DNA of 64,000 bases from Candidatus Cloacimonadales bacterium (GTDB lineage: Bacteria > Cloacimonadota > Cloacimonadia > Cloacimonadales > JAIOQZ01): assembly GCA_963665815.1 (NCBI GenBank), contig OY762463.1, forward strand, positions 64,001 through 128,000. The letters run 5' to 3'. A model generated the notes under the pieces. That model was not told where the DNA came from and did no database searches. It worked only from the letters and a program-made list of their open reading frames with translations. Shown in pieces: positions 20,875-55,920 of this stretch. The position numbers and the translations under genes were made by a program. The first letter of the stretch is position 1; each line of letters begins with the position of its first letter.

Positions 20875-21060
20875 TATAAAGTGACACCCAAGAGTACATA
20901 GGCCACATATAGCATCTTGCTTTTTTAACTTTTAATTTATTAGCCATTTACACTTATTTTACAACGCTTTTGCGGTATTCCGCAAACGCGATAGCGACCA
21001 TATTGAATTGAAATTCGAAAAAACGATTAGCAAAAACGCTTAGACGCAGAACCGCAACAG
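20875..21060 (+). repeat. Left end L1 (outer copy)
   Basis: First 27 bp identical to 22889-22915; similarity to 22889-23255 continues apart from a ~170-bp indel. Confidence 0.85.
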
Positions 21061-21101
21061 CTATTTATAAAAATTCTGAAACCATAAAACGATTTATTAA
21101 T

Positions 21102-22832
21102 TTATAGATTTAAAAATTTTAGAAACTCTTCTTGGATTTCATTTTTCTTTTCTTCTTTTATATTGTCTTTTTGCCACTCTATAATGGAATGAATTGGTTT
21201 TAGATGATTACTCGGAGGTTTAGATATTCCTAAAAAATCTTCAAAATCCTTATCGAATATTTTTCTATCTTTAGAGAACGGATAAGCTTGATATTCATCA
21301 TCCAAGAAAGAATTTACAATATCCCAGAATCCTATATCTGCACTATTTCCTTTGTTATTTATAAAATCCTTATCATACCATACAGAGTGTTTGATGCCCA
21401 TTTCATTCAGCAGTTCCATATATTTTGGAATATTATACTTCCCTTCTGCATTTAATACAAAGAAATCCCTATTTTTAATAGTGCTCCAATCATTATCTAA
21501 GAGATATAGAATTAGATTTCTTTCTGTTGCACCTTCGCAAATTAAAACCTTACTTGCAAAAAACATTTTAGCTCTTTCTGAATCGACGCTAAAAGAAAGC
21601 TTAAGAATTTCATAATATTCAGGTATATCAAAATTTAATTTTTTTTCAATGTTCTTAACTAAGTGTTCATGTGTTTCAGGATTTGATTTGATCTCGTTGA
21701 GTTTTGCAACCAATTTTCCTAAGCCTGAACTGAGTATGTTGGGATCTATGTGATAGGTTAGAGAAACACCTTCTTCTTTTTTGATATGAGTATTTTTTTT
21801 GACATCTGCAAAATTATTAGAGACAAAATTTGTAGAGTGTGTAGTTATTATAACTTGATTATCTTGAGTATTTGCTAAATCTTGCAAGCTCGCATTTAAT
21901 GTATCTTGTTGAGATGGATGCAAAAATGCTTCTGGTTCTTCAAATAAAATCAAAGTAAGATTAGATTGAAAATCCTTCTTTTTAGGAGCTTTAACAGGTT
22001 GGTATTTAGGAGTAAGATTTATTAGAGCATAAATTAAATGTCTCTGGAATCCTTGTCCAAAATCCTCAATTTTTTGTTGTGAATCACCTAATTCAGCATC
22101 GCTAAAATAATGAGAAACTAGGTTCTTTACGATATCTTCTGGTTTTAACTCATTGAAAAATATTTTGAAATTGATCCCCCAATCACCGATTAAATCATTA
22201 ATGTCGGCTTCAACAGTCTTAATCGATAATTCATCTTCTTTATTTTCTTTTAAAAGTTTTTCAAAAGTATTAAATGATTTTGTTAATTGTACAAATTCCT
22301 TTGATTGTTTTACAACTGATTTGAAGACAAAATTCATAATATCTCTGAATGGAGAAGGTCCACTTGTTTTTAATTGCTCAGAGGATTTACTTACATCTGG
22401 GATATAGACTAAGTTCCCAATTTTTGATCGAGATACTGCTCTCATTCCATAAAACTGATTTGTGGATAACTTACCACTTTCATAAGCATGAATATTAGAT
22501 TGTTTGCTATCGAATAACTCTTTATCTGTGGAAGCAAAATAACGTCTTAATTTTAATACTTTATCTTCAGTCTTATATTCATCCTTCAATGTATCAAACT
22601 CACAATTCTCTAATTTATAATGTAATTCTATCCAACTTTCTTTGTCAGTTGTATCAAATATTGGAAAATCAGTTTTAGAGTATTTTACATCATCATAAAA
22701 TAAACGAAGAGCATAAATAAGATTGGATTTCCCAGAGTTATTTTTCCCGATAAATAAGCTATATTCATATAAATCTATTTCTTCGTGTTTGAAAGATTTG
22801 ATGTTGTGGACAATCATTTTGACAATATACAT
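21102..22832 (-). CDS. OLD-family ABC-ATPase/TOPRIM nuclease (putative anti-phage)
   Basis: Walker A GKNNSGKS, signature-like GQGFQR, Walker B LFEEPEAFLHP, TTHS; TOPRIM LICEGATE and YDKD. Confidence 0.88.
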   Translation of the reverse strand: MYIVKMIVHNIKSFKHEEIDLYEYSLFIGKNNSGKSNLIYALRLFYDDVKYSKTDFPIFDTTDKESWIELHYKLENCEFDTLKDEYKTEDKVLKLRRYFASTDKELFDSKQSNIHAYESGKLSTNQFYGMRAVSRSKIGNLVYIPDVSKSSEQLKTSGPSPFRDIMNFVFKSVVKQSKEFVQLTKSFNTFEKLLKENKEDELSIKTVEADINDLIGDWGINFKIFFNELKPEDIVKNLVSHYFSDAELGDSQQKIEDFGQGFQRHLIYALINLTPKYQPVKAPKKKDFQSNLTLILFEEPEAFLHPSQQDTLNASLQDLANTQDNQVIITTHSTNFVSNNFADVKKNTHIKKEEGVSLTYHIDPNILSSGLGKLVAKLNEIKSNPETHEHLVKNIEKKLNFDIPEYYEILKLSFSVDSERAKMFFASKVLICEGATERNLILYLLDNDWSTIKNRDFFVLNAEGKYNIPKYMELLNEMGIKHSVWYDKDFINNKGNSADIGFWDIVNSFLDDEYQAYPFSKDRKIFDKDFEDFLGISKPPSNHLKPIHSIIEWQKDNIKEEKKNEIQEEFLKFLNL

Positions 22833-22842
22833 TTTTCCTCCT

Positions 22843-22888
22843 TTATCGCATCACTCTAAACAAAAACGCCATCACACCCAAAATCCTG
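22843..22888 (-). pseudogene. 3' remnant of a paralogous phage repressor gene (RILGVMAFLFRVMR*)
   Basis: 22849-22888 matches 24581-24620 (RILGEMAFLFRVMR*) with 3 substitutions; cut exactly at left end L2. Confidence 0.85.
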
Positions 22889-23255
22889 TATAAAGTGACA
22901 CCCAAGAGTACATAGACTACATCGAGCATCTTCTCCTTTTATCTCTTTATTAATTCAATATTTACACTTATTTTACATCGCTTTTGCAAAACTTCCATTT
23001 TAGAGAGATTTACAGTGTCCAATTTCTGGTTTGTTTCTGTTTTGACGGCTTGTTTGGGGATGCTAAAAGGTTTGTAAGTTACTTTAAATCATTATGTTAT
23101 AAATCGTTGGTCGTTTGTGGCTGTGAAAATACTCGCTAACTCAACCGCTTTTGCGCTTTTGCGCCATTCCGCAAATGCGATAGCGACCATTTCGGTTTGA
23201 TTTTCTGCAAAAGCGATTTGCAATAACGCTGAGACACCGAAACGCAATTGCGTTA
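22889..23255 (+). repeat. Left end L2 (inner copy)
   Basis: TATAAAGTGACACC terminal repeat followed by CGCTTTTGCG/CGCAAATGCG motifs. Confidence 0.85.
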
Positions 23256-23334
23256 AAAAAGAAATGATCGGAATATTTTTCTGATTATTTGACAAACGAA
23301 ATCGTTATGTAATTTTTTACATAAGGAGATAAAT

Positions 23335-24567
23335 ATGAGAAAATGCATAATCTGTAGAATGGATAAATCAGAAGATTTGTTTAATGATGAACATGTTATT
23401 CCTGATTCAATATCTGGTTATTATCATATAAATAAAGTGTGCAAAGAATGTAATTCAAAAATTGGTAGTAAAATTGACAGTCATTTAACAAATCATTTAT
23501 TAATTGAATTTCAAAGACATTTGCTAAAAATAAAAGGGAAGAAAGGTAAAGTACCCAATCCATTAAAAGGTACTCACGAGGTCAAGGAAACTGGACAAAA
23601 AGTAAGATTAGATTTAGACTCAGAAGGTAAATTTGCACCAAGATATTTTCCTCTTATCCCTCAAAGCATTAATGATAGCCAGCCTTTCATCATAGATGCA
23701 CGAGATAAAAGTAAAATTGAACCAATTATTAAAGGTTTTGCAAAGAAGCAAGGTTTATCAAGAAGTGACATAAAGGTCGAAAGTACATTAGAAAGAGATA
23801 GAAAATGGATAGTAGGTAATTTTGCTGTTGATACTAAGAAATTTAAAATGGCGTTATTGAAAATAGCTTATGAATTTACAGTAGATCAGGTTAAAGATTA
23901 TTTCGATGATCCTATGGCTAAGGTTGTCTCAAATCTACTACTCAATGCAGACTTTGATAAACTTTATGATTCAATAGTGTTTTATGGAGATGGAATAGAT
24001 AATCGGATTGTTGATCAATTTTCCAGATTCATCAATTTCAATGATAACAATCATTATCTGGTTCTTTTAGGTTCAGAAACATTGGGTCTAATCTGCTATG
24101 TTAATCTATTTGCTACATTTTATCTTGGAATAAAGATGAGTGACAAACCTTATTTGATTGGTCATAGTATAGTTGTTGGCATAAATGATATTAATCAAAA
24201 AAAATTTTCTGTTTCAACTCTTGAAAATATTATAAATAAAATGTACCCTACAACGGAATATAATTTTCAATTTCATTTCAAAGATCAAGAATCATACGAA
24301 GAGTTTATATTAAATGAAAATATTCCATCATCGTCAGTCTATAAGGAGAACAATGATATTCCATTCTACAACTCAAATGGTGAAATAATTTATAATAATA
24401 TCGAGTTAAAACTTCACCAAAAACAACTTAAATACACAGATATAAATGATCAGCAAAACAAGCTTATAACAAATATCATTCTGGATGAAGAACTTTATAT
24501 TAGGTTACTTCCTATGAACAAGCTATGCAAAGTTGTTTCAGTTAATATTGAAAGAATCCGAAAATGA
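23335..24567 (+). CDS. HNH endonuclease-domain protein (putative defence cargo)
   Basis: N-terminal CIIC..EHVIP...CKECNS zinc-binding HNH motif; RBS AAGGAG. Confidence 0.8.
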   Translation: MRKCIICRMDKSEDLFNDEHVIPDSISGYYHINKVCKECNSKIGSKIDSHLTNHLLIEFQRHLLKIKGKKGKVPNPLKGTHEVKETGQKVRLDLDSEGKFAPRYFPLIPQSINDSQPFIIDARDKSKIEPIIKGFAKKQGLSRSDIKVESTLERDRKWIVGNFAVDTKKFKMALLKIAYEFTVDQVKDYFDDPMAKVVSNLLLNADFDKLYDSIVFYGDGIDNRIVDQFSRFINFNDNNHYLVLLGSETLGLICYVNLFATFYLGIKMSDKPYLIGHSIVVGINDINQKKFSVSTLENIINKMYPTTEYNFQFHFKDQESYEEFILNENIPSSSVYKENNDIPFYNSNGEIIYNNIELKLHQKQLKYTDINDQQNKLITNIILDEELYIRLLPMNKLCKVVSVNIERIRK

Positions 24568-24574
24568 TTCTTAA

Positions 24575-25306
24575 CTACCTCATCACTCTAAACAAAAATG
24601 CCATCTCACCTAAAATCCTGAAGGTTTCAAGTTCGTAGTCTTCAATTATGATGACATTGTAATCTTCATTTAATGGTCTTAGTAAAACTCTTCTTTTATC
24701 TCCATCAAACTGAAGTTTTTTAAGTGTTACACCATCAGGAGTTTGGCAAGCACAGATTTTTCCATCAAGATTTAGCACATCATTTCGTTCGTGAATTATC
24801 ACAACATCACCATTCATAATTTTCGGAGCCATACTGTTTCCATTTATTCTAAGTGCAACATAGGTATCCTGCGAATCAGATAAATAGGCTTTTGGGATTT
24901 CAATATATTTCCACGGCTCTGCATCATATCCGTCAATAGGACTACCGGCAGCAATTTCACCATAAATCGGAAGTGTGATATTTCTTGAATCAAATGGGTT
25001 AAGTTTATGTTGATAAACAGTTTTACTACCGGACATTTCCTCTAAGCCTTTATTATTGCCTTCTCCATAAAGCTTTCCATCTGCATCCGGAATAAACATA
25101 CTACCCTTACCGGTGATAAGCCAATTCAGGTTCAATCCATAGTTTTCATTGATACGAGCCATCGCAGGTGGCGAAGGTTTACTCGGCTTTTTTCTACTTG
25201 TCCAGTCAGAGACGTTGCTCTGAGTTACTTCAATGGTCTTGGCGAACTCGGAACGTGTTATACCAAGAGAGTTTATGAACATTGTTAATCTGTCTTTAAT
25301 ATCCAT
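24575..25306 (-). CDS. Phage CI-like repressor (HTH + S24 peptidase)
   Basis: XRE HTH, NLNWLITGKG, AAG cleavage site, GNSM (Ser) and TLKK (Lys). Confidence 0.92.
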   Translation of the reverse strand: MDIKDRLTMFINSLGITRSEFAKTIEVTQSNVSDWTSRKKPSKPSPPAMARINENYGLNLNWLITGKGSMFIPDADGKLYGEGNNKGLEEMSGSKTVYQHKLNPFDSRNITLPIYGEIAAGSPIDGYDAEPWKYIEIPKAYLSDSQDTYVALRINGNSMAPKIMNGDVVIIHERNDVLNLDGKICACQTPDGVTLKKLQFDGDKRRVLLRPLNEDYNVIIIEDYELETFRILGEMAFLFRVMR

Positions 25307-25473: not shown

Positions 25474-25716
25474 ATGAGATCAAAGTATCATCCGGCGGAA
25501 ATCAGAGCAGCAATGACGCTTAAAAGTCTCACTACCATTGCAATATCAAAGCAAATGTCCATCTCAAGAAGGACTCTTGATTACTTCATAAGTGGACAAT
25601 TAAATATGAGCAGATCAGAAGAATTTATAGGACTTCTACAGCCTGAGCTTGATGAAATAAGTAAAACCTTTCGCAAACATATCGGCAAAGATTTGCAACT
25701 TTGCGAAGTAGGATAA
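25474..25716 (+). CDS. Small HTH protein, Cro/Ner-like
   Basis: HPAEIRAAM..K N-terminus resembles Ner; divergent from the repressor; RBS AGGAGG. Confidence 0.65.
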   Translation: MRSKYHPAEIRAAMTLKSLTTIAISKQMSISRRTLDYFISGQLNMSRSEEFIGLLQPELDEISKTFRKHIGKDLQLCEVG

Positions 25717-25718
25717 TT

Positions 25719-27727
25719 ATGGATTTTCAAGAGTTAACGATTCAGGATGTTCAAAAAGTGTTTTCTAAAAGTCGAGACGGTGCTTATAGAATGGCTAAAT
25801 TGAATAATTGGGATTATGAATTCAAGTCTCTTGATAAAGGCGGAAGATTCAAACTCTATAAAGTCCCGACTGCGATTATACCTAAAGAAGAAGTTGTTGC
25901 CGCAGAAGCGATATCTGACGCAGTAAAAGCCGAAGTAGTCGAGTATGATCCTACAATTGAAAATCTTATGCCTGAAATTAAAATTCCTGAACACGAACTT
26001 TATAGAGCACAGTTAAAAGCAGAGCTTTGTGAGAAGGTAATTTCTGAATTTCATAAGATTAAGGTTAAAAAGCAAGCAGTAGAAAATGTTCTGGATGCTT
26101 ATAATAGAGGAATGCTCATACCTGAATTATTCAGACTCGAAGATACAAGAACTGCTCGCACTTTACGAATGTGGCTTAGAACCTATGAAGAGAGTGGTCG
26201 TGATTTCAAATCCCTTACTCGCTTATCAAAGGCTTCTGCTCAGATGAAGGCAACCGAGAAAGAACAAAACTTCCTTCTTGGATTACTACTTGATGCCAAC
26301 AGAATCAAAATCGGTTCAGCTATCAGAAAGTAAAACAATTCAGCAGACTTGGAGCAATCGAATCTCCAACCAGTGAAAGAGCACTTAGACGATGGTGTGA
26401 GAGTTGGAGAGACAGCCATGTCCAACAATGGAATCTTCTTCGCAACGGAAACAAGTTTATTAAGGATAACACCTTATTCAGCCTTGATCGTGCAGAATGT
26501 CTCAATGTTGGTGATGTCTGGGTTGCTGATGGTCATAAACTGGCTTTTGATATTATTGATCCGGTTTCAGGCAAACCAAAACGTATGATGCTGATTATGT
26601 TCTTTGATTGGGCAAGCCGATATCCGGTAGGAGCATCACTGGCAAATTCTGAAGATTCAGAACATATTCTGATGGCTCTTAGAAACGGAATCCTTCACTG
26701 GAAAGGCAGACCAAAGTATGTCTATCTTGATAATGGTAGAGCATTTAAATCAAAACTGTTTCATCAGAATTGGGAGAAGCATAATCTCGAAGAGGAATTA
26801 TGCGGAATATTTCCAAGACTGGATATCAGTGCAGTTTTTGCCAAAGCCTACAATGCCAGAGCGAAAGTGGTTGAGAGATTTTTCAACACATTCCAGGAAG
26901 ATTTTGAAAGATTTATGGATACTTTCAGAGGTTCTGGAATCGGAGATAAACCGGCATTTCTGATGCGTAATGAAAAATGGATTCAGAAACTGAAAAAACG
27001 TGAGCCACTGACTGTAGAACAGGCAAAGCAATTTATGGCAATCTACTTTCAAGAGCTTTATGGCAAAACACCTCATGGCGGATTAAAAGCCAAAACTCCT
27101 CTTGAAGTTTTCAGGTCTGCAGAAGTTCCGGAGAACAGAAAAATCGAATCTTCTGAACTGAATTTTATGATGCTTAAAGTTGATGAAAGAAAAGTCAGAG
27201 GAAACGGCATCCAGCTTTCAAACGTGATTTACTATCACGATTATCTGATGAACTATGTAGGTCAGAAAGTATCACTCAGATACGATTTGATGGATATGCG
27301 ATCGATTCTGGTTTATGACAAAGACGGAAAACTTATCTGTCAGGCATTAATCAAGAAATCAGTTCATCCGTTTATCAAACTGGCAGTCAATCAGCCATTA
27401 GCCGAAAAGCAACTTCAAAAACAAATCGCTCATCAAAGAAAATTAGAGAAAAATGTAAAACGTGATTCTGCCATCCTGCAAAAGCAGGTTCAGGAAGCAA
27501 TTTCAGAATTTGAACTGCCAATGCTGAAACTTCCGGATTCAGCTTTTAATGAAAATGGCTTACTTGAACATAACGCTACTGTCGATGAAAGCCTTGATAT
27601 CGATAGAATGGCTGAACAGACAGCACATTTATTATCAAAATCCACTCCTGCTCCAATTGAAAAAACGGCTGAAGAGCAGGGATTGGAAAACTTAGACAAA
27701 TTACTAAAACAAATAGGCATAGATTAG
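25719..27727 (+). pseudogene. Mu A-like DDE transposase interrupted by a -1 frameshift at ~26328
   Basis: Adding one A at AGAAAG gives a continuous ORF with VADGH, YLDNGRAF, KVVERFF and a Mu-transposase C-terminal domain (RKVRGNGI, RYDLMD). Confidence 0.85.
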
Positions 27728-27735: not shown

Positions 27736-28452
27736 ATGAGAGAATATGCTTTAGCACAAACAAGTAATGTAAAACAAGCTTATGATTTGTTTGATTACCT
27801 TATTAAAAGACCAAAAACTGAAATGGTCGGGTTAGGACTTATCTACGGACCTCCGGGACTGGGCAAAAGCAGATTTGCCAGACAGACTGCAATTCAAAAT
27901 GATTATATCTACTTCAGATTAGAAGCTACAATGACAGCTAAAAGCTTTGCCGGAAGGCTTCTTGAAAGAATCTACTTCCACTTTGGAATGCCGAAAATTG
28001 GAATCAGAGGGACTGCCAATGATATTTTTCATCGCTGTCTTGAAATACTGAAAAATTTTGAAAACACAATTATCGTAATTGATGAGATTGATTATGCTTT
28101 CAAAAACAAGAAAATCTTAGGCAGTATCCGAGACATCGTTGATCAGACTCTTTCGATTGTTGTATTAGTCGGTATGGCTGACGCTAAAGAGAAGCTTCTT
28201 GCCGCAGATGCTCATTACTTTGACAGGTGCAATTTCTTCTGCCAATTCAAACCATTAAACGAAAGTGATTTAACACTTTTATGTAAAGAGGTGTGTGATG
28301 TTGAAGTTGATGACATAGTAATCAAACATATAGCCAAAAAGACTAAAGGCAATATTCGTAAATTTATCAAATCACTCTACTCTCTTGAAAATCTGGCAGA
28401 AAGAGAAAACTTAACTGTCATCAGACCTGAGCATATTACATCAATGCAGTAG
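27736..28452 (+). CDS. Transposition AAA ATPase (MuB/TniB-like)
   Basis: GPPGLGKS, VIDEID, VLVGM; directly after the transposase. Confidence 0.88.
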   Translation: MREYALAQTSNVKQAYDLFDYLIKRPKTEMVGLGLIYGPPGLGKSRFARQTAIQNDYIYFRLEATMTAKSFAGRLLERIYFHFGMPKIGIRGTANDIFHRCLEILKNFENTIIVIDEIDYAFKNKKILGSIRDIVDQTLSIVVLVGMADAKEKLLAADAHYFDRCNFFCQFKPLNESDLTLLCKEVCDVEVDDIVIKHIAKKTKGNIRKFIKSLYSLENLAERENLTVIRPEHITSMQ

Positions 28453-28460: not shown

Positions 28461-29561
28461 ATGGAAATATCATTCTATAAGAAAGTTAGAAATTTCATAG
28501 AGTTTTTTGATAAGCCTTTCACCGGTGACGTTGTTGCCGGTGAAACCGGTCTTACAATTAAGCAGGTTACCAGAGTTCTTGGTAAGATGAATGACGTAGG
28601 TTTAATCAAGCCCATTTCATCACAAGGCAAGTTCAGAATCTATATCAAGAACATTGAATACAAAGAAGAAAATCCGATGAACAACTATAACTTCGAAATC
28701 AAATTTCTAAAATCTATGATTCGTAAATTGAAAACCGGTAATTATAGCAGTACACGTCAGCTTGAAGACGTTATGGATGGTGACAGAAGAAAAGTAACTC
28801 GCTATTTGATAGCTCTCTGTTCAATCGGAATGGTAGATTTGATAAACGGTAAATACAAAGTGGTTAAGGATGTTGACCTGCTTCTGATTGGAAGCAAGAT
28901 GGATCGATCAATTTTAAGAAAACTCAAAGATAAAGAAATCGAATTTACAGAAGGAGTAATAATGGGAAGAAAGGAGAAAATACTTACAGATGCACATGGT
29001 CGGGAATATCCTGCTAAAATACTTGATCCTCAAATTGTGAAGAGAGACACTATTGTTAATCGTTTAATGGGCAAAGCATTGAGATTACACGATAAAATAG
29101 AAACCGAGAAAATTAAGATGGTTGAAGATATTGATAAATACCTCACTCAAACAGCTCAGAAATATGGAGAAGAATGGAAAGGCAATGCTGAATTGGTTTC
29201 CTTTGATGGTAAGTATAAAATTGAAATCAGAAACCGAGAGCGTATTGAATTCAGCGAAAAACTCCAAATTGCAAAACAGAAGATTGATGAGTGTCTAAAA
29301 CGCTGGAGCGAGGATTCAAATGTTAATCTTCAGGCAGTTATCAAAGAAGCATTTCAGGTTGATAAAAAAGGCGAAATTGCCAAAAGCAGAATCTTAGGTC
29401 TCCGCCGTTTCAACATCAAAGATAAACAATGGCAACAAGCTATGGATTTAATAGACGAAGCCATACAAGTTACTTCAACCAAGCAGTATATTGCATTTTA
29501 TGAAAGACCATCGGAAGACAAATCATTTCAGCTTGTATCACTAAATTTTAGTGCGTTATAG
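28461..29561 (+). CDS. HTH-containing N-terminal region in frame with a DUF3164-like protein (internal RBS and ATG at 28962)
   Basis: KGN..L.SFDG, AKQKIDECL..WS, AFQVDKKG, W..AM..I..AI, ..L.FSAL as in DUF3164 of Mu-like phages. Confidence 0.7.
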   Translation: MEISFYKKVRNFIEFFDKPFTGDVVAGETGLTIKQVTRVLGKMNDVGLIKPISSQGKFRIYIKNIEYKEENPMNNYNFEIKFLKSMIRKLKTGNYSSTRQLEDVMDGDRRKVTRYLIALCSIGMVDLINGKYKVVKDVDLLLIGSKMDRSILRKLKDKEIEFTEGVIMGRKEKILTDAHGREYPAKILDPQIVKRDTIVNRLMGKALRLHDKIETEKIKMVEDIDKYLTQTAQKYGEEWKGNAELVSFDGKYKIEIRNRERIEFSEKLQIAKQKIDECLKRWSEDSNVNLQAVIKEAFQVDKKGEIAKSRILGLRRFNIKDKQWQQAMDLIDEAIQVTSTKQYIAFYERPSEDKSFQLVSLNFSAL

Positions 29562-29706
29562 AAACTAACAGAGCAGGGCGATAAACTCCGGATTTTCGGA
29601 GTGTTTCTCTTTGCTCTCTTTTTTTGACATTTTTTGTGGTAACTCTGGGCAACGCTGTTTGACCCTGTTGGCAACTCCTATTTATATGAACTCAGGAGAT
29701 AAAAAT

Positions 29707-29919
29707 ATGGTTCAGGTTTTTAATGAAAGCAAGTGTTATACTCCCTTGAGAGTATCAGAAATTTTGGCTGTTGATATCAGCACCATCTACAGGCTGATCA
29801 GAGATATTGATCATCCGCTTCCTGCATTCAGGCTTAAATCCAATGGTCAATTACGAGTGCATGGAAAAGAAATAAACAAGTATTTAGAAGATCACAAGGT
29901 TGATCCTCTAAACGAATAA
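29707..29919 (+). CDS. Excisionase-like HTH DNA-binding protein
   Basis: YTPLRVSEILAVDISTIYRLI..LPAFRL; RBS GGAG. Confidence 0.75.
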   Translation: MVQVFNESKCYTPLRVSEILAVDISTIYRLIRDIDHPLPAFRLKSNGQLRVHGKEINKYLEDHKVDPLNE

Positions 29920-30318
29920 ATGATGACAAACAGGCAGATTGAGTTTGCAAAGCGTTTGAGAAAGAAGATAGTCATTTTCGCAAAAAATGATCTCCGAATG
30001 ACTATGAATGACCTTCACTCTCAAATGGAATCTCTGGGATACGGAACCTCCCTCAGGCAACTCAGTCTGCCTTCTCTTATTAATCTCAACCAAACACTTA
30101 AAGGTAAATCAAACTGTATTCACGAAAATCTCGATGCTCAAGGCAAGAAAATCTGGGCATTGTATAAATCTTCAACTTGGAGCAAAGAGCAGTTATATGG
30201 CTTCATTGCTCAGAAATTCGGAAAATCCGGAATTCAGTATTTAACCAAACAAGAAAAAGGAACTTTGATTAAAGTCTTACAAAGCTATGAACTCAAGAGA
30301 ATACAAAATCAAACGTGA
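29920..30318 (+). CDS. Mu GemA/gp16-like (DUF1018) protein
   Basis: KKIWALY, L.GFI..KFG..IQYLT..E...LI..L pattern; position in the early-middle region. Confidence 0.6.
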   Translation: MMTNRQIEFAKRLRKKIVIFAKNDLRMTMNDLHSQMESLGYGTSLRQLSLPSLINLNQTLKGKSNCIHENLDAQGKKIWALYKSSTWSKEQLYGFIAQKFGKSGIQYLTKQEKGTLIKVLQSYELKRIQNQT

Positions 30319-37142: not shown

Positions 37143-37150
37143 ATTAAAAC

Positions 37151-43851: not shown

Positions 43852-43982
43852 AAATGAAAAATGAAAAATTAAAAGGAAGAAAAAAGATGATACATCGAGG
43901 ATTGAGAGACAGTTACTTAACTTTTGCAAACAACCATCTCTTAATTCTTAATTATTAATTCTTAACTCATTTGGAGGTTGGA

Positions 43983-45719: not shown

Positions 45720-45727
45720 GAGGATAT

Positions 45728-45928
45728 ATGTGGAAATGGATACTGAAACAAGCGTTGAAATCACTCGCTGAACCGATTGTTGATGCAATCATCCTTGCTC
45801 TTGAAAACTTAGCAGCAAGAACAGGCAATACTATTGATGATCAGTTTGTTGCTAAGTTCAAAGAGTTCAAAGAAGCAATAATCGGCTTCATCCTCGCTAA
45901 CTGCGATAAAATCGTCAAATCAAGCTGA
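45728..45928 (+). CDS. Small phage protein (holin-like)
   Basis: LAART.NTIDD motif; RBS GGAGG. Confidence 0.5.
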   Translation: MWKWILKQALKSLAEPIVDAIILALENLAARTGNTIDDQFVAKFKEFKEAIIGFILANCDKIVKSS

Positions 45929-45938
45929 GGAGTAACCA

Positions 45939-48121: not shown

Positions 48122-48151
48122 TTCCCATTTCCTATTGTTTTAAGCAATAAC

Positions 48152-49165
48152 TCATTTCAAAAGAATCTTGTTATAAACATTTATATAAGCTGTGATCATT
48201 TTTTCACGGCTAAATTTTGATTTTGCCCAATTGTGACAGTTAACTCTATTAATGTATCTAATATTTTTTACTGCAAAAACTGCTTGTGAAATATCATTTA
48301 CAAGAAAACCCGTTTTCGAGTCATCAATTAATTCCGGCATTGAGCCTTTATTAAAAGCTATTACTGGTGTTCCGCAAAGCATTGCTTCTGCTACACTTAA
48401 GCCAAATGGTTCACAAAAATTAATTGGGTGCAATAACGCATAAGCATTTCCCAAGAGTTTATCACGTTCTTTCACTCCTGAATTTCCAACGAATATGATA
48501 TCTTTGTTGTTAATTAATGGTTTTATCTTGTTTTCATAGTACTTTTCATCTTGGATCAAACCTGAAACAACAAGCTTTCTTCCTGATTTTTTAGCAATTT
48601 GAATGGCTTCATAAGTACCCTTTTCAGGGTGAATTCGACCAAAATACAAAAGGTAATCTTTTGCTACTGGTTTAAATGTAAAGTTGGAAGTGTCAATTCC
48701 ATTGTATACAGTTGCAATATAATCCAATTCAGGGCTTCGGTCAGAATTACTGATAGAAACATAATAGTTATCATTATTGTATTTTTTAAAAACAGGAATT
48801 ATTTTTGGAGATGAAAATCCATGAATAGTAGTAACCATTGGAGTTTGTATTAATCTAGAAAAACTAAGAGGTAAAAAATCGAAATTATTATGTATCAAAT
48901 CGAAATCATTCGCCATCTCCATTAAGTTACTTATATGCAAACATTCCCATACTTTAGGTTCAATATTTTGATCTTCTGCATATGCTGTTTCACAAACATA
49001 CTCCAACTTTCCTTTTGTAATAGAATTCCCTGTGGCAAAAAGAGTTACATCAAAACCTTTTTCTACAAGTCCTTCAGCAATATTAGATGTCACCTGCTCC
49101 CAAGGGCCATATTTTATGGGTGGTGTACGCCATGCAATTGGTGATAATACAGCAATTTTCATCAT
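48152..49165 (-). CDS. GT4 glycosyltransferase
   Basis: PP..YGPWE, GRIHPEKG, EPFGLSVAEAM. Confidence 0.92.
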   Translation of the reverse strand: MMKIAVLSPIAWRTPPIKYGPWEQVTSNIAEGLVEKGFDVTLFATGNSITKGKLEYVCETAYAEDQNIEPKVWECLHISNLMEMANDFDLIHNNFDFLPLSFSRLIQTPMVTTIHGFSSPKIIPVFKKYNNDNYYVSISNSDRSPELDYIATVYNGIDTSNFTFKPVAKDYLLYFGRIHPEKGTYEAIQIAKKSGRKLVVSGLIQDEKYYENKIKPLINNKDIIFVGNSGVKERDKLLGNAYALLHPINFCEPFGLSVAEAMLCGTPVIAFNKGSMPELIDDSKTGFLVNDISQAVFAVKNIRYINRVNCHNWAKSKFSREKMITAYINVYNKILLK

Positions 49166-50088
49166 TATAGAGGACTTCTTGAATTATTTAAGCAATGATC
49201 AACAAGATCATCAATGACTGCTGTCCCAACACACATCACTTTGTCTGCACCACCCCAATAAATTTTTACTGTTCCATCTGGTTCCGGAACTGCTGCACAA
49301 GAAAAAACAACATTATGAACATATCCTGTAATTTCATAATCTTCTTCAGGTTGCAATATCCAGTCATCACCAACTGCAATAATTTTTGAAGGATCAACAA
49401 GATCGTGTAATGCAACTCCAAGGCGGTAGACACACCCATCCATTGTTGGAAATACACCATGATAAATATTCAGCCAACCTCGCAAAGTCTTTATTGGTGG
49501 AGCTCCAGGACCTATTTTCATTTCATCCCAATGATATTGCATTGGTTTCATTATAAGTTTTGCTTGTCCCCAGTACTTAAGATCAGGGGAATATGATATC
49601 CATATTGACCAAGGAGAAATCTCAGAATGAGGTCTGTCTAAACGTGCATATAATCCATTAAATTTTTCAGGGAAGATAACTACATTCCTATAATCAGCTT
49701 CTGTAATAAACGATAACCGCTCAATAAAAATAAAATCTATAGTTTTAGCAAGACCAATGCGCACACCATGTCTAGAATAAGCACTGTAAGTAATAAGATA
49801 CTCACCGTCTATATTTATTATACGTGGATCTTCAATTCCATATTCTTCATAATCTTTGAAAATGCCATCATTCTCTGGAACCATAAATGGTTTCTCATCA
49901 ACCTTAAAATTATAGCCATCAATACTAATGGCTTTTCCTAAAATACTTCGCCCATTTCTTTTGTGTGACCTAAAAATCATAACGTAAGTATTTTCAAATT
50001 TTACAACAGCAGCATTGTGAACAGTAGCAACAGGATAAGGAACATCTTTTTTTGTGAGAATTGGATTGTTTTTATATCGTACTATCAT
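49165..50088 (-). CDS. GH130 glycoside phosphorylase/hydrolase
   Basis: RYKNNPIL, GIEDPRI, YEITGYVHNVVF, YWGGAD. Confidence 0.9.
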   Translation of the reverse strand: MIVRYKNNPILTKKDVPYPVATVHNAAVVKFENTYVMIFRSHKRNGRSILGKAISIDGYNFKVDEKPFMVPENDGIFKDYEEYGIEDPRIINIDGEYLITYSAYSRHGVRIGLAKTIDFIFIERLSFITEADYRNVVIFPEKFNGLYARLDRPHSEISPWSIWISYSPDLKYWGQAKLIMKPMQYHWDEMKIGPGAPPIKTLRGWLNIYHGVFPTMDGCVYRLGVALHDLVDPSKIIAVGDDWILQPEEDYEITGYVHNVVFSCAAVPEPDGTVKIYWGGADKVMCVGTAVIDDLVDHCLNNSRSPL

Positions 50089-52334
50089 AATTTTGCATCT
50101 TTCAAATCGGATATATGATATTCTTCATAAGCTTGCAAAACAGTGATGTAAGAAATTGTATAGGCTAAAATACTTTCAGCTCCTTGATTTCGATTTACTC
50201 CATAGCTTTCCAATCCATCGCAACAACCTTTTGTTTCGAAATCGTATAAAATAATTCTTAAATCGTTTTCTCCAAGAAACCACATAAATGAGGAAAATAA
50301 TTTTTCAAGATAACCCTTTTCATTGGTAAACTTATATGCCTGATGAAACATTAAGACCATTGCCATAGCATCAATTGGCTGTTGGGCAAATTTCGATACT
50401 TCTTCACCTTTTTTATACCAGTCTTCGTTTCCAATTATGGATAAATAGCCTTCGCTCATTGTAGTATCTGTTAGGAAATGCATTGTTTTCACACCAATAG
50501 TTCTAAAATCATTATCGTTTAAAACTTCTGCTGAATGTAATAATGCTAAAGGTAGAATAGCGTTGTCGTATGCTAGTAGTTCTTCAAACCAAACCCATTT
50601 TTCTGTACAATTATTTTTAAAGCCTTCTGCCAATTTTGTTGCTAATTTCTTAAGTAACTCAATCATCTCATCATCAGAAGGAGAAATGCGTAGATAATAA
50701 CTTAAACCAAGTATAATATTGGCAATACCTCGAATGGATTTTACATTATCAAAATTTGGAACAGCTTTAAAAAATATAGATTTTCCAATTTGAAAATATG
50801 AATCGGATGGAGCATTTGCAATCATATAACCAAGTGCCCAAATTGTCCTTCCAAAAGAATCTTCTGATCCTACTTCATCAAGAAAGCTGCGGTTAAAGCT
50901 CATGAAGTTCCTAAAAGTTCCATTTTCATTTTGCATATAATCTATATAACTAAGATAAATTGGACATAATTCAAGAGCTGTGTAATCTTTCTTTTGATTA
51001 AAAACCATTAAAGCCATGAGTAATGCTCTAGAATTATCATCGATACAATAGCCTTCTTTTAAAAATGGTATCCCATATTTCGCATGTTGTATAATCCCAG
51101 TATCATCTGTCATCCTTTTAATATGAGTTAGTGAAAACGTTGGAAGAAGCATCAAATTAAAAGGAGTTGCTTTCCTTTTCTCGATTACTAAATCCTCTGC
51201 AACAACATTTACCAGTAAATTGTAATATTTTTTACCAATTTTTGGCCAAGTTATTTCTCTTCCATATTTGTAAGCCTTTTTTCTTATAGCCAGTCTCTTT
51301 TGGGGGTTATCAAGTAATTCTATCAAAACCTCTGTGAGTTGGTGCACATCATTGAAATCAAACAACACTCCCTTTTCATCTTCAAGTAATTCAGATGCAT
51401 GCCAATATGGTGTAGAAACAACTGCAGAACCTACTCCTATCGCATAAGAAAGTGTTCCGCTTGTTATTTGAGCTTCATTCAAATAAGGAGTAATATAAAT
51501 ATCTGAAGCATATAAATATTTGAATAGGTCACTTTGATCTACAAACTTATCTAACATGAGAATATGTTTTTCAAGATTGAGATCTTTTATTAGACTAGAA
51601 AGGTAAATTCTATATTCTTCACCTGAGTGGCGAAGCACATTTGGGTGAGTTTTTCCTAAAATGATATACAATGTTTCAGGATGCTTTTCAACAACTTTTG
51701 GCAATGCTTTGATGGCTACTTCAATTCCTTTATTCCTACTTATAAAGCCAAAGGTAAGCAATATATTTTTCTTCTCAAGTTTAAATTCTCTTTTGGTATC
51801 TATTTGAGAATAGTCAAAATCAGGAACACCATGTTCAATACAAACTATTTTATCTTTTGGAGCTTCATAAATATTTACAAGAAGGTCAATTGCCTTCTGA
51901 CTCATTACTACTATTCTATTAGCAATCTTACAAATTTCCTTAAGTATTGATTTTTCAGTATATGAAGGTGATTTTAGAATTGTATGTAAGGTAACGATTA
52001 ATGGGATTTTAAGTCGATATAGAAGAGGGAGTATATATATTCCACTTTGTCCACCATAGATACCAAATTCATGCTCTAGTACACAGCAATCTGCCCCACA
52101 ATGATTTATATATTTTACTGCCGATAAATAATCCTTTTGCGATTCCTGTTTTATTGTCATTTTTACTTCTTCAGGATACACATAATTTTTACCAAAATCA
52201 TTCATAGCTACAACAAAATTTTCACTCATTTCTCCTTTATTCTCAGCGAACCTGACGGCGTTATAAAGGTCTCTAGTAAATGCCCCTATACCGCATTCTC
52301 GAGGAGGATAAGATCCTATATAAACATTTTTCAT
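50085..52334 (-). CDS. GT4 glycosyltransferase fused to a C-terminal (alpha/alpha)-barrel domain
   Basis: YPPRECGIG, EHEFGIYGG, QITSGTLSYA; C-terminal DDTGIIQHA, DDNSRAL, NQGAES. Confidence 0.88.
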   Translation of the reverse strand: MKNVYIGSYPPRECGIGAFTRDLYNAVRFAENKGEMSENFVVAMNDFGKNYVYPEEVKMTIKQESQKDYLSAVKYINHCGADCCVLEHEFGIYGGQSGIYILPLLYRLKIPLIVTLHTILKSPSYTEKSILKEICKIANRIVVMSQKAIDLLVNIYEAPKDKIVCIEHGVPDFDYSQIDTKREFKLEKKNILLTFGFISRNKGIEVAIKALPKVVEKHPETLYIILGKTHPNVLRHSGEEYRIYLSSLIKDLNLEKHILMLDKFVDQSDLFKYLYASDIYITPYLNEAQITSGTLSYAIGVGSAVVSTPYWHASELLEDEKGVLFDFNDVHQLTEVLIELLDNPQKRLAIRKKAYKYGREITWPKIGKKYYNLLVNVVAEDLVIEKRKATPFNLMLLPTFSLTHIKRMTDDTGIIQHAKYGIPFLKEGYCIDDNSRALLMALMVFNQKKDYTALELCPIYLSYIDYMQNENGTFRNFMSFNRSFLDEVGSEDSFGRTIWALGYMIANAPSDSYFQIGKSIFFKAVPNFDNVKSIRGIANIILGLSYYLRISPSDDEMIELLKKLATKLAEGFKNNCTEKWVWFEELLAYDNAILPLALLHSAEVLNDNDFRTIGVKTMHFLTDTTMSEGYLSIIGNEDWYKKGEEVSKFAQQPIDAMAMVLMFHQAYKFTNEKGYLEKLFSSFMWFLGENDLRIILYDFETKGCCDGLESYGVNRNQGAESILAYTISYITVLQAYEEYHISDLKDAKL

Positions 52335-53139: not shown

Positions 53140-53278
53140 AGAACTAATTAAAATAAGAAAACATGAACTACAACAGGATTATGATAAACTGAATAAAACT
53201 CTCAAAGAAACTGAAGAGCTGAAGCTCAAGACTGAAGGTGCTTTGTTAATATTAACCAAAATTGAAAAGGAGATATAA
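53129..53278 (+). CDS. Small coiled-coil phage protein (49 aa)
   Basis: RBS AGGAG; MTAKELIKIRK...IEKEI*. Confidence 0.5.
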   Translation: MTAKELIKIRKHELQQDYDKLNKTLKETEELKLKTEGALLILTKIEKEI

Positions 53279-53279
53279 G

Positions 53280-53852
53280 ATGGCAGGAAACTGGGTAGAA
53301 GTATTAGATTCATCAAAACTTGGACAAGCAAATGGAATAGCACAATTGGATGATAAACAAGAACTTGCATCTGCACAAATTCCAACATTACCAGTGAGCA
53401 AACTATCTGGAACACTAAGTGAATCTCAAATACCGAGTTTGCCAGCAACAAAGATTACTTCTGGAACATTTTCATCTTCTAGAATTCCATCGTTAGATGC
53501 TTCGAAAATAACAACCGGAGCTCTTGGAAGTGACAGGATTCCAACCTTATCTCAAAGCAAAATCTCAGGATTATCCACTGCTCTGGCTGGTAAAGTTTCA
53601 ACGTCTATCAAAGTCAATGGACATGCTTTGACAGGCAATGTTAGCGTTACCAAAACCGATATTGGTTTGTCAAATGTGGAAAACAAATCTTCAGCAACAA
53701 TAAGAAATGAGATCACAAAAGTTAATATTACAAATACAGGAGTCAATACATCAGATTTAATCAAAGGTGTTAGAGAATTGCCAACATCAGGAACAGATGG
53801 AGAAATGGTGAAGTTCAACGATGCCTTATATGTTTGGAAGGATTCTGTATAA
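53280..53852 (+). CDS. Tail fibre-like protein with IPSLxASKITSGT repeats
   Basis: About four 18-aa repeats; VNGHALTGNVSVTKTDIGLSNVEN motif typical of tail fibres. Confidence 0.75.
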   Translation: MAGNWVEVLDSSKLGQANGIAQLDDKQELASAQIPTLPVSKLSGTLSESQIPSLPATKITSGTFSSSRIPSLDASKITTGALGSDRIPTLSQSKISGLSTALAGKVSTSIKVNGHALTGNVSVTKTDIGLSNVENKSSATIRNEITKVNITNTGVNTSDLIKGVRELPTSGTDGEMVKFNDALYVWKDSV

Positions 53853-54517
53853 TGTGGCAGAAATTGGTTCAAAACAATGATATCAAGGACAACTTTTTAT
53901 TAGAATCGCAGATTTATGAATATACCCTTGGCGAGCCACTACCAGATAAACCTGACTATTCTTGTTCTGATGGTGGAATCCTTATCCGAGTACTTGTTCC
54001 TACCTTATTATATGAGTGGGAAACATCAATCAAAGAAATTGGAACACCGCTATTCCAAATTTTCAAATATGAAGCAAATTTTGATACAAGAGCCAGGCTA
54101 TATCATGAAGAATACATCAAGCATTTATCGGTTGGTAATAACAGAGTTCGAGCGAATATCTATCTTAGTCCCGGTAGATATTATCTGCGAGTATCGAAAG
54201 CTGATTTTACGATAAGCAGAACGCTATCATTTAATCCTGAAAACAAGTTCATTCAATTTAATGATTCTTGCCAGATTAAGAAGGACGAACCATATCCAAC
54301 TTGGAGAGATACTCCAACAACGGATGTATGGTTTTGTATTTTCTCTTTGAAATTTAAGATTAGAAAATCAGATTTGTATCTCGGATTTGAACACAGAATG
54401 TTTGATGACCGTCACTTGCTTTATGGAGCTTTTTATCATGCTCCTGACCCAGATGGAATTTTAAGAACATTTATCTTTGATGGCAGAGGACAAGTCGTTG
54501 AAGGAATGAAAATTTGA
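53852..54517 (+). CDS. Phage hypothetical protein
   Basis: Coupled ORF followed by a terminator. Confidence 0.55.
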   Translation: MWQKLVQNNDIKDNFLLESQIYEYTLGEPLPDKPDYSCSDGGILIRVLVPTLLYEWETSIKEIGTPLFQIFKYEANFDTRARLYHEEYIKHLSVGNNRVRANIYLSPGRYYLRVSKADFTISRTLSFNPENKFIQFNDSCQIKKDEPYPTWRDTPTTDVWFCIFSLKFKIRKSDLYLGFEHRMFDDRHLLYGAFYHAPDPDGILRTFIFDGRGQVVEGMKI

Positions 54518-54523
54518 GCAAAG

Positions 54524-54561
54524 AAATAGCCCATCTCGTTTTGAAATGGGCTTTATTTTTT
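54524..54561. terminator. Intrinsic terminator ending the late operon
   Basis: AGCCCAT...ATGGGCT stem followed by a T-tract. Confidence 0.65.
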
Positions 54562-54932
54562 TACCATTCTCGCCATTGAAATGTAATATCCTGATTGTTA
54601 TAACTACTCAAATCAATTTGAACAGCCTTTGCAATGCTGATAAAAAGTAAGCATAAATCGTCTCGTTCGCCTGTTTCAATTAAGGTTTCATCTATTTCAG
54701 CATTTAATATATTCAATTCTATTACAGCAGTCTTAAATTTTTCAACCATCTTATCTTCGTTAGCTTTGCTTCCCATTTCTATGAGTTCATCAATTAATTT
54801 AATAAATATAGCATCAACTTTCAGGAGATTCTTTTCTGTATATTGGTATAAACCAAGTGCAAAAAGATTACTCCATTTTTTTTTAAACAAACCTCTCTCT
54901 TTAATATTATTCAAAGTTCTAATATCAATCAT
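54561..54932 (-). CDS. Hypothetical protein (DUF4844-like)
   Basis: IETGERDDLC..F..IA motif; C-terminal WREW. Confidence 0.5.
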   Translation of the reverse strand: MIDIRTLNNIKERGLFKKKWSNLFALGLYQYTEKNLLKVDAIFIKLIDELIEMGSKANEDKMVEKFKTAVIELNILNAEIDETLIETGERDDLCLLFISIAKAVQIDLSSYNNQDITFQWREW

Positions 54933-55080
54933 TCTTAACTCCTTTTTATGTATCACTTTATGTCTCCAATATAGAGACTTACCATTATACAGTCAAGTAG
55001 ATAAGAATATGTTTGCGACAAAGTTTATTTATTGAATTGCAACGATTTAACTGTGGTATAAATCAATTTTTAAATACTTT

Positions 55081-55484
55081 GTGACGCAGGTTTTTCCTTA
55101 AGGAAAATACGGTGTCACTTTTTTTCGGGAAGGATTTTCTGTAATTGTATATAAAGCAATCAAATAACAAGTCGCAAAACTTGAATGGCAAAAGTGACGT
55201 CATAATTTCCTTACCGAGTGGTAAGGAAAAACCGGTGTCACAAATTTTTAGGACAGAAAAGAGGTAACTCTTTATTTTTCAACGTCTCGCCAAAAGTGAC
55301 TGCACTTTTTCCTTAATTTGGGCAAAAAATGAAGAATGGAAGAATTGCCGTCACTTGCAGTCTGATGGAATCAATAGAGTTATTTGTTTATTTTTAAATG
55401 AGTTATGAATTATGAAGAGATTTAAGATTGCAAAATTAAGGAAATTATGGTGTCACAAGTGGCAAAAACCGGTGTCACTTTATA
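55081..55484. repeat. Right end with eight copies of a 19-bp motif (consensus AAGGAAAAAnnGGTGTCAC)
   Basis: Copies at 55081(-), 55100(+), 55194(-), 55223(+), 55296(-), 55336(+), 55438(+), 55460(+); terminal repeat ends at 55484. Confidence 0.85.
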
Positions 55485-55571
55485 CTTTATATCTACATTA
55501 CATAAAAAAATCGGCTTCACACAAGCTTCGCCGAATCAGTCTTCCTTTTTCACTTCGTTCAAAACGAAGAC

Positions 55572-55920
55572 TGGTGGAGGTGGCGGGAATCGAACCCGCG
55601 TCCAAAGATATACCAGAAACTGAATCTACATGTTTAGGCATTCCAAATCTTATGCATGAACAGGAAATGCTCAAACTGAGTCATGCACCAGCCCCAAAAT
55701 CTTAGTTGCGTGCAAGAGGCAGGACACGCAAAGCAGCTCTGGAAACATCGCTCGTTGTAAAACCCAAAGCAAATTTTACAGGAGCGTAGCTACGTTATTA
55801 TGCAGCTAAAGCGTAATTTTCGTTTGCATTTAATTTAAGTATCACCGTGATTAACGGGTAGGTAATCTCCCCGACATGCATCAGCAACCAATTCTATCCC
55901 TGTCGAAACCAGTCACCCCC
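55572..55920 (-). ncRNA. ssrA: tmRNA, tag peptide ANENYALAA**
   Basis: 5' GGGGGTGACTGGTTTCGAC; 3' GGTTCGATTCCCGCCACCTCCACCA with G3-U wobble in the acceptor stem; tag ORF 55827-55795. Confidence 0.96.

Follow-up and report, generated by a model that had tools for sequence, protein, structure and literature searches.

A Mu-like transposable element that has two left ends and a single right end, the latter pointing at the tmRNA gene ssrA from a short distance, raises the question of whether elements of this kind choose their insertion site. The element occupies positions 20875-55484 of a stretch of 64,000 nucleotides from a Candidatus Cloacimonadales bacterium (hereafter the window, meaning the whole stretch that was analyzed), which corresponds to bases 64001-128000 of a single-contig genome (G000; 3,963,599 bp, 98.66% complete). 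The genomes of relatives are designated G001-G121. In the comparison of related elements reported here, right ends show what is likely a strong preference for the 3' flanks of stable-RNA genes, which is orientation-specific, partial, and non-obligate. The region 20875-55484 probably consists of the ruins of two Mu-type prophages from one lineage that arrived one after the other, with the right end next to ssrA on its downstream side, and the lineage appears to have a preferred, non-exclusive pathway to the flanks of RNA genes.

In the window, ARAGORN identified one stable-RNA gene, ssrA, at 55572-55920 on the minus strand (encoded tag ANENYALAA; Rfam RF00023, 189 bits). The 14-mer TATAAAGTGACACC has exactly three matches in the whole genome, at 20875-20888 (+), 22889-22902 (+), and 55471-55484 (-); two more positions, 1326095 and 3306194, match with one mismatch. 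An earlier note on this DNA, made from the sequence alone, had described two diverged left ends and one right end just past the ssrA terminator, and the three exact tips agree with this description. The right tip at 55484 is located 87 bp from the 3' end of ssrA and approximately 22 bp beyond the T-run of the terminator, as the note had placed it. The target region between tip and gene (55492-55571, -) contains two hairpins and the terminator T-run, and the right end itself (55081-55484, -) carries eight GTGAC-type repeats in approximately 400 bp. The seven bases directly outside the right tip (55485-55491, -) copy the tip, so that TATAAAG is followed by a second TATAAAG. Judged by its sequence and by similar stubs of 6-50 bp in relatives, this 7-bp stub can be read as the presumed outer tip of an earlier right end.

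The left end of the older element, L1 (20875-21101, +), and that of the newer element, L2 (22889-23334, +), have their first 27 bases in common and are alignable with scattered differences over about 100 bases, after which they diverge. A 67-aa open reading frame (ORF) inside L2 (23092-23295, -) had no Pfam or PHROG match; L1 contains a partial copy of the sequence that encodes it. Between the two ends lies a gene for a 576-aa ATPase-TOPRIM nuclease of the OLD family (21102-22832, -; Pfam AAA_15 1.5e-28, OLD-like_TOPRIM 5.5e-15; PADLOC Old 1.5e-56), which is left-arm cargo of the older element. It is followed, directly left of L2, by the last 14 codons and the stop codon of an older repressor gene (22843-22887, -). 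This remnant (RILGVMAFLFRVMR) is identical to the C-terminus of the intact repressor (RILGEMAFLFRVMR) in 13 of 14 residues, in keeping with the earlier reading that the inner left end cuts an older repressor gene.

Tips of this type were searched for within the family, across all prokaryotes (one genome per species) with a 21-base pattern, and in 232 genomes of the phylum with a 13-mer. The 21-base pattern matched 106 stretches (18 from this phylum), and the 13-mer matched in 67 of the 232 genomes. The flanks were annotated with ARAGORN and Rfam. The census included right-end loci with the tip 13-mer from families f1 and f6 plus G011, stacked tips being merged to one locus; five tips on small contigs of G007 were left out. 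Fifteen of 29 right-end loci are situated at most 130 bp downstream of a tRNA or tmRNA gene, and in all 15 the right tip faces the 3' end of the gene. Seven different RNA genes are involved. Besides ssrA in G000, these are tRNA-Pro(ggg) with the tip at 50 bp in G001, 63 bp in G002, 65 bp in G003, 45 bp in G004, and 46 bp in G011; tRNA-Pro(cgg) at 42 bp in G006; tRNA-Pro(tgg) at 44 bp in both G120 and G121; tRNA-Val(cac) at 45-59 bp in G001 (45 bp being the outermost stub), 35 bp in G003, and 40-61 bp in G004; tRNA-Asn(gtt) at 75 bp in G009 and 72 bp in G116; and tRNA-Met at approximately 125 bp in G009 if a later group II intron is discounted. At tRNA-Pro and tRNA-Val, the distances are concentrated around 35-50 bp; where the gene is succeeded by a separate terminator hairpin, they are 72-87 bp. 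The intron (locus L184, 3372-5397; Rfam D1-D4 and domain V) lies between tRNA-Met and the right tip and ends 6 bp before the tip.

Two claims of the earlier note were thereby narrowed in one case and widened in the other. A site-preferring transposable phage is supported by the 15 loci at RNA genes, but insertion there is not obligate, and the ssrA terminator is one target among the 3' flanks of seven stable-RNA genes. The tabulation of homologous elements that it had called for placed the adjacent ones right end first, whereas elements of a sister clade were found at non-tRNA loci with clean target duplications.

Two further right ends, each either among the 14 remaining loci or outside the tally, still point at ssrA. 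In G010, which harbors a close relative of the window element (MuB 85% and TerL 87% identical), a truncated right end faces ssrA from approximately 1 kb; a GIY-YIG gene and repeats, which are later insertions, lie in between. In G009, a right tip is located 164 bp past a displaced 3' fragment of ssrA, behind a 9.4-kb island flanked by att sites. The direct repeat that borders this ssrA island (G009:C1:3074001-3088000; L275 and L164) is 133 bp long, 97.7% identical, and consists of the 3' end of ssrA with its flank. In G005, G009, and G010, GIY-YIG genes are found just past ssrA. Among the loci read, no left tip faced the 3' end of a tRNA gene. Left ends of G010 (L150) and G008 (L182) lie on the 5' side of a Met-His-Arg-Met-Met-Arg tRNA cluster that both genomes have, 208 bp and 518 bp upstream of it, respectively.

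The controls and INDEPENDENCE covered matches in other phyla, the f3 lineage, the background share of the RNA gene zones, and the kinship of the genomes. Of 88 pattern matches outside the phylum (chance matches), none faced a tRNA, and none of 30 loci of the f3 lineage, a sister phage lineage, faced a tRNA or tmRNA gene. The 42 tRNA/tmRNA genes of G000 have downstream zones (130 bp each) that together make up 0.069% of its position-by-strand space; the binomial tail was 3.7e-18 for 7/19 and 6.4e-41 for 15/27, counts which preceded the final 15/29. The 3' flanks of the other 41 tRNA genes of G000 contained no tip-like motif, ssrA being the single match among 42 flanks. Related genomes are not independent, and the conservative count is therefore that of the seven different RNA genes. 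The junctions at tRNA-Pro(ggg) vary within one genus (+45, +50, +63, and +65), with the flank in G002 running 18 bp past the junction of G004. G120 and G121 carry different right-end types at the same nucleotide, +44 from tRNA-Pro(tgg). The tmRNA of G000 is 67-68% identical to those of G009 and G010, compared with 72-87% for the prophage proteins of G000 and G010. These differences in junctions, end types, and identities support insertions that were probably independent.

The ends were shown to be true transposon ends that moved by Mu-type transposition, as 5-bp target duplications are present in relatives whose ends and gene order are the same. The complete relative G009_0.41M has tips TATAAAG...CTTTATA as in the window, a 5-bp duplication (ATAGA), and no stub, and exact 5-bp duplications flank two sister-clade elements at non-tRNA loci (TCTGA in G004_0.99M and TCCAT in G004_2.90M). 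MuA homologues were present in all eight genomes of the family, at 27 places, and the order Rep-MuA-MuB-...-TerL-MuF-[cargo slot]-lysin-portal-capsid-[slot]-fibre-R is common to at least 12 elements. The closest MuA in the phage collection reached just 22-33% identity to any phage record. The f3 lineage has the tip, MuA (51%), and MuB (45%) in common with the window lineage, and no other gene. In the MuA tree, the window clade (support 96/99) comprises all four full-length elements with RNA-gene-adjacent right ends plus three without; in the sister clade, none of the three right ends determined is adjacent to an RNA gene. The element at tRNA-Asn in G009 additionally encodes a 282-aa serine recombinase of the resolvase/invertase type in its early region (L206, 15807-16655, -) and a Phg_2220_C protein between MuA and MuB. 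On a 2.5-kb contig of G026 (C319; L217, approximately 1000-1019), a right end cut at ...GGTGTCACT abuts a left tip TATAAAGTGACACCCC, as expected from tandem or circular forms. Three sister-clade left tips (G001C1_17k, G004_3.78M, and G003C19_0.52M) are directly preceded by right-end fragments, ...GCGTGTCACTTCACACACAC adjoining TATAAAATGACACC; here, ends are nested or abutted at a distance from tRNA genes.

Stacked right ends were not restricted to the window. Stubs of 6-50 bp were found at no fewer than eight loci, new right ends often lying a few to 50 bp inside older ones. Those at tRNA-Val measure 6, 8, 27, and 49 bp in G001, 8 and 13 bp in G004, and 15 bp in G003, where an 11-bp stub of the sister-clade tip TGTGAAGTGAC is also present; those at tRNA-Pro in G002 measure 17 and 50 bp, and one of 29 bp lies at a non-tRNA locus in G001. 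The stubs fit repeated landing at a similar distance from the RNA gene and equally an attraction to resident ends, two explanations between which the data do not discriminate. A second double left end was detected in G008, with tips 1936 bp apart and an inner end that cuts the repressor gene at approximately residue 118. The repressor is thus cut in both G000 and G008, which may point to a preference for that region, left unexplained by both models of the locus history. Two left tips of the f3 lineage in G031 (C72; L263, 1742 and 3369) lie 1627 bp apart, each preceded by a repeated host-flank motif. They were rejected as a third case, for the inner tip has no repressor stub and the arrangement looks like a duplication of flank plus end.

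The arrangement in the window could have arisen in the following order. The older element would have landed beside ssrA, and the newer one would then have inserted 7 bp inside the older right tip, giving ssrA-stub-[R...L2][R1...L1]. A deletion starting exactly at the L2 tip, of the type produced by intramolecular Mu-type transposition, would have taken away the older element as far as the final 14 repressor codons, so that L1, the OLD nuclease gene, and the repressor stub stayed behind. The frameshift in MuA and the replacement of the tail genes would be due to later decay. We infer this two-arrival history from the 7-bp stub, the missing duplications, and the abutment of L2 on the last 14 repressor codons. 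The same three features fit the earlier proposal that the newer element deleted most of the older one, the order of events being presumed.

Several observations weigh against a directed pathway or against this history of the locus. Fourteen of the 29 right-end loci are not beside an RNA gene: G001:C2:10330, one in G002:C5, two in G004 (1.84 Mb and 1.97 Mb), one in G007:C30, two in G006 that lie inside the left end of another element, one in G008 (2.19 Mb, 710 bp and one gene from tRNA-Gly), one in G117, two in G009 (2.83 Mb and 3.08 Mb), one in G119 (1.97 Mb), and those in G120 and G121, 209 bp and 767 bp, respectively, from tRNA-Arg. Likewise, three of the seven full-length elements in the MuA clade of the window are not beside an RNA gene. 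The distances range from 35 to 87 bp and once reach approximately 125 bp, and no shared sequence at the junctions was seen by eye; a ruler based on one binding site therefore does not fit all cases. The sites at tRNA-Pro(ggg) and tRNA-Val recur in one genus and may partly be inherited. The tip pattern was taken from the window, left and right ends were sorted by judgement, and most of the genomes are metagenome assemblies. In the window itself, neither L1 and the right end nor L2 and the right end are flanked by a 5-bp target duplication (flanks ACTCT, TCCTG, and CTTTA). The empty site, which the earlier note had hoped to find in a close relative, was sought in G005, the genomes of the phylum, and the flank of the G009 element, and none was found. 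G005, of the same genus, has approximately 3 kb around ssrA in common with G000 at 88.8% identity and nothing downstream, positions 1-16000 of the window map to scattered places in the non-syntenic G005 genome, and the flank of the tRNA-Asn element in G009 consists of dispersed repeats. With neither a duplication nor an empty site, the history of the locus rests on inference.

A different history would dispense with a second event directed to ssrA: the newer element would have transposed into the repressor gene of the resident, followed by homologous recombination between the co-oriented copies. This yields the observed order L1-OLD-repressor stub-L2...R, and a similar repressor is cut in G008. 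It predicts, however, a 5-bp duplication shared by L1 and the right end, and none is present (ACTCT versus CTTTA, or TCTAC beyond the stub); the 7-bp right-tip stub is left unexplained as well. We regard this course of events as unlikely.

Two successive arrivals might also be explained by targeting of an element's own kind only. Resident ends or remnants would then attract newcomers via bound transposase or repressor, or homologous recombination would replace the residents, and the link to tRNA genes would go back, by accident of history, to a few old insertions that were used again and again. A preference for its own kind had already been considered in the earlier note, and it gains support from the stubs inside resident right ends, from the sister-clade stub at tRNA-Val in G003, from the right ends inside another element's left-end region in G006, and from the resident repressor genes cut by inner left ends in G000 and G008. 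As the sole cause, it would nevertheless require seven founding events beside RNA genes, since the seven genes lie in unrelated contexts and in two host families. The element G009_0.41M sits at tRNA-Asn with a clean duplication and no stub, and the different end types of G120 and G121 share one nucleotide at tRNA-Pro(tgg). As a complete explanation, it is thus doubtful at best.

Random insertion of the Mu type followed by selection, in which insertions in harmless places such as tRNA flanks persist, is improbable. Other insertions do lie shortly behind terminators (the left end of G004_0.99M, for instance, follows a T-run at a distance of 7 bp), and the sister clade and the f3 lineage occupy varied loci. 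However, thousands of intergenic sites should be equally harmless, yet 15 of 29 right ends fall into approximately 0.07% of the position-by-strand space, and neither the constant orientation of the right end toward the gene nor the identical junction nucleotides of different elements are explained by selection. An integrase/att model at ssrA was rejected: among the 44 window ORFs scanned, no integrase, recombinase, or TniQ matched Pfam at E≤0.001, and no second copy of the ssrA 3' end or flank was detected in the window or the genome apart from chance matches of 11-20 bases. The absence of these features had been noted before from the sequence.

An assembly error at the double left end or at the junction with ssrA is next to impossible. 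Assemblers can be led astray by such repeats, and the genome was probably assembled from a metagenome, yet it forms a single 3.96-Mb contig, the same architecture recurs in G008, and a 7203-nt Logan contig made by a different assembler, contained in each of the three runs of a single sample, spans L1, the OLD gene, and L2 (20747-23400) with 0 differences. The arrangement is therefore not the artefact of one assembler, and the chimera that the earlier note had named as a refutation is rejected. The sample behind the Logan contig may be the source of the assembly, which makes the contig a second assembly rather than an independent sample; run X1 (share 0.06) yielded short pieces with differences only and was uninformative on the L1-L2 junction.

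The preference of right ends for the 3' flanks of stable-RNA genes calls for a mechanism that provides a fixed polarity. An asymmetric target complex at the flank could recruit MuA/MuB in one orientation, in analogy to the recruitment by TnsD/TniQ-TnsC in Tn7-like elements. At the same Pfam threshold, no TniQ was detected in the 44 ORFs of the window, 23 ORFs of G001, and 26 ORFs of G009; integrase and TnsA were likewise without Pfam match in the window, G001, and G009. A selector that is not homologous to TniQ is possible. The feature common to the targets is the T-arm and acceptor end of tRNA-like genes, a possible candidate for the landmark that is read.

The best candidate for the selector, held with low confidence, is the protein encoded directly after MuB (28461-29561, +; 366 aa), a tandem winged helix (residues approximately 5-134) fused to DUF3164 (residues 176-364; Pfam DUF3164 4.3e-56). 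Its AlphaFold model has a pLDDT of 74.9. The domain DUF3164 occurs in 209 phage records and is a common early protein of known transposable phages; 25 of 191 homologues have the fused length covering most of the query. A model of the complex with MuB scored an ipSAE of 0.68, compared with 0.34 for the best control. Of 80 solved complexes, 58 attained this mark, as did 2 of 110 mismatched pairs; these counts are rough owing to the use of our own alignments. The contacts agreed by at least 90% between runs with a partner pLDDT of at least 76, and the modelled interface with MuB is in the winged-helix part (residues 3-30, 69-80, and 138-145) and, on the MuB side, involves residues 49-60 and 78-88. 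The modelling thus supports predicted binding of the protein to MuB, the score being one of model confidence, which tempers the argument. The earlier note had named the AAA protein and the helix-turn-helix (HTH) proteins as candidate targeting factors; what remains of this is the modelled binding of the protein at 28461 to MuB, from which a role in targeting does not follow. A further point on the negative side is that a diverged homologue of the tandem-HTH protein after MuB also exists in the sister clade, whose insertions are at non-tRNA loci. It was therefore discarded as a marker of the tRNA-seeking clade, and its presence alone does not explain the trait.

Fold searches with the winged-helix part gave generic tandem winged-helix matches only (Foldseek E≥3.7e-4, TM≤0.19). 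Matches to RPC62 of RNA polymerase III, TFIIIC tauB, and SelB were at this generic level and were rejected as functional evidence. DUF3164 alone was modelled with a pLDDT of 87, and searches against solved structures stayed below tool background (Foldseek best E 0.1; VIA-align best Z 6.4, mostly one long helix). A specific scheme can be drawn from this, which we hold only tentatively and consider rather unlikely as a whole: one Mu-like clade would possess a TniQ-free, Tn7-style 'safe harbour' pathway for lysogeny, in which the two-winged-helix protein, fused or adjacent to DUF3164, binds MuB, reads a feature shared by tRNA and tmRNA genes, and loads MuB with fixed polarity, so that the right end would join a few dozen bases downstream, lytic replication remaining random. 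If this were true, the MuB neighbourhood of transposable phages would encode target selectors, and the widespread early protein DUF3164 would be part of the target-capture machinery.

Its transposase, MuB, ends, and duplications place the element among the transposable phages, from which it departs in its site choice. With Mu and other transposable phages (Mu, D3112/B3, and BcepMu/KS10 types; 'Saltoviridae') it shares a MuA-type DDE transposase (rve and Mu-transpos_C) with an adjoining MuB-type AAA+ ATPase, a CI/LexA-like repressor at the left end, a GemA-like gene and a DUF3164 gene, terminase-portal-MuF head genes, ends with repeated transposase sites, and 5-bp target duplications, the latter in its relatives. 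Mu itself integrates at random, and near-random integration of transposable phages is textbook knowledge. This lineage differs in its orientation-specific bias to tRNA/tmRNA 3' flanks, in two internal minus-strand cargo slots, in the tandem winged helix fused or adjacent to DUF3164, and in the defective state of the window copy. For transposable prophages of Leptospira, one report describes TA...TA tips and states that Mu-like phages integrate at random (PMC8705779).

The transposase and AAA+ regulator of Tn7-like elements are homologous to MuA and MuB, CAST I-D homes 30-33 nt downstream of a tRNA gene with TnsD, and MuB forms a separate clade of the TnsC tree, for which the text consulted reports no selector (PMC10293859). 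The right end dense in binding sites and the orientation-specific, right-end-proximal insertion downstream of a conserved gene are common to Tn7-like elements and the lineage studied here. Tn7 produces a 5-bp duplication and inserts with its right end proximal to the 3' flank of a conserved gene; programmed, orientation-specific insertion beside conserved genes is the hallmark of Tn7-like elements and needs a TniQ/TnsD selector. The lineage differs in having neither TnsA nor TniQ/TnsD by Pfam (E≤0.001), in being a phage with head genes, and in the partial nature of its preference. Stacked insertions into resident ends, which Tn7 target immunity would oppose, are common here. Integrase-borne islands and prophages at tRNA genes and ssrA, such as the island in G009 with its att repeat, use the same genomic addresses, but they recombine inside the 3' end of the RNA gene and duplicate it, whereas the relatives of the window element have 5-bp duplications. 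In eukaryotes, the retrotransposons Ty3 and Dictyostelium TRE insert at a fixed distance from tRNA genes of any identity; they use reverse transcription and recognize the RNA polymerase III machinery, which does not exist in bacteria.

Full-text literature searches, with supplements outside their reach, returned no report of a tRNA- or tmRNA-directed Mu-like phage. If the preference is confirmed, target selection would have evolved more than once on the MuA/MuB-TnsB/TnsC chassis, and a new, possibly compact selector would be at hand for programmable or safe-site DNA insertion. It would also explain the tRNA and ssrA flanks in these genomes as layered graveyards of phage ends and cargo, including defence genes. 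The finding gives a testable role to the proteins encoded beside MuB.

The window element itself is a defective Mu-like prophage and not a working phage, because its transposase is frameshifted and its tail module lost. The ORFs were annotated with Pfam, PHROGs, and PADLOC. To the right of L2, the left-arm cargo of the newer element encodes a 410-aa protein with an HNH_5 endonuclease domain (23335-24567, +; Pfam HNH_5 8.6e-16; no PADLOC match), followed by the CI/LexA-type repressor with an HTH and an S24 peptidase domain (24575-25306, -; Pfam Peptidase_S24 3e-21; phrog_4 2.4e-38). The broken gene for the MuA-type DDE transposase (25701-27727, +; phrog_310 3.2e-64; Pfam Mu-transpos_C 8.6e-19 and rve) has a 1-nt deletion after 26330, which leads to a stop at 26331-26333; the downstream frame is open from 26294. 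The missing base was recognized by alignment with three intact relatives, in which MuA has 696-787 aa. A programmed frameshift was rejected, as there is no slippery heptamer at the shift site and the relatives have one base more there; the shift reads as a probable mutation, with a sequencing error as the alternative. The MuB/TniB-like AAA+ ATPase (27736-28452, +; 238 aa; Pfam AAA_22 6.5e-12, TniB 4.9e-9; phrog_296 1.5e-28) and the winged-helix-DUF3164 protein are followed by genes for an HTH_17 protein, a GemA-like protein, the small and large terminase subunits, and a MuF-like head protein (29611-33172, +; Pfam/PHROGs; TerL phrog_38 2.8e-58).

Two cargo islands on the minus strand interrupt the late genes. 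Both slots are also filled with cargo in relatives; the two gaps in the window are therefore cargo slots of the lineage. Island 1 (33184-40824, -; approximately 7.6 kb, GC 0.26-0.29; Pfam) encodes an epimerase, a 997-aa caspase-STAND-like protein, a Pepco-like protein, a methyltransferase, an ARMT1-like protein, and a hydrolase; in G001, minus-strand cargo in this slot consists of a type III restriction-modification system and a 1583-aa WD40 protein. The 997-aa protein combines a caspase-like domain with weak STAND/AAA matches and is followed by the small Pepco-like protein (34149-37465). The two could be a defence pair; PADLOC gave no match for them. The genes for an M15 endolysin, three small ORFs, the portal, a protease-capsid fusion, and two small head ORFs (40983-46481, +; Pfam/PHROGs) are kept in this order in relatives. 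Island 2 (46655-52334, -; approximately 5.7 kb; Pfam and comparison with the G001 element) carries two GH130 and two GT1 glycosyl-transfer genes. At its position, the intact relative in G001 has plus-strand Dam genes, ORFs without assignment, a beta-helix protein, and presumed tail genes, and the second slot of the G008 relative holds two T9SS-sorted proteins. A tail-fibre-like ORF (196 aa) and a 227-aa ORF (53262-54517, +; phrog_23008 1.2e-12), with homologues beside the right end in relatives, are the sole remains of the tail module; Pfam and PHROGs recognized no tail gene in the window except the fibre-like ORF, with the head genes present.

Left of L1, a low-GC block (16125-20843; 0.28-0.30) contains paralogous large ORFs (756 aa, 602 aa, and fragments), none of which matched Pfam, PHROGs, or PADLOC. 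Of the 232 phylum genomes, one contained the 602-aa ORF, which marks the DNA on this side of L1 as strain-specific. Further to the left, an approximately 430-bp MITE-like repeat (11544-11976) has dozens of copies, 80-90% identical, across the genome of G005.

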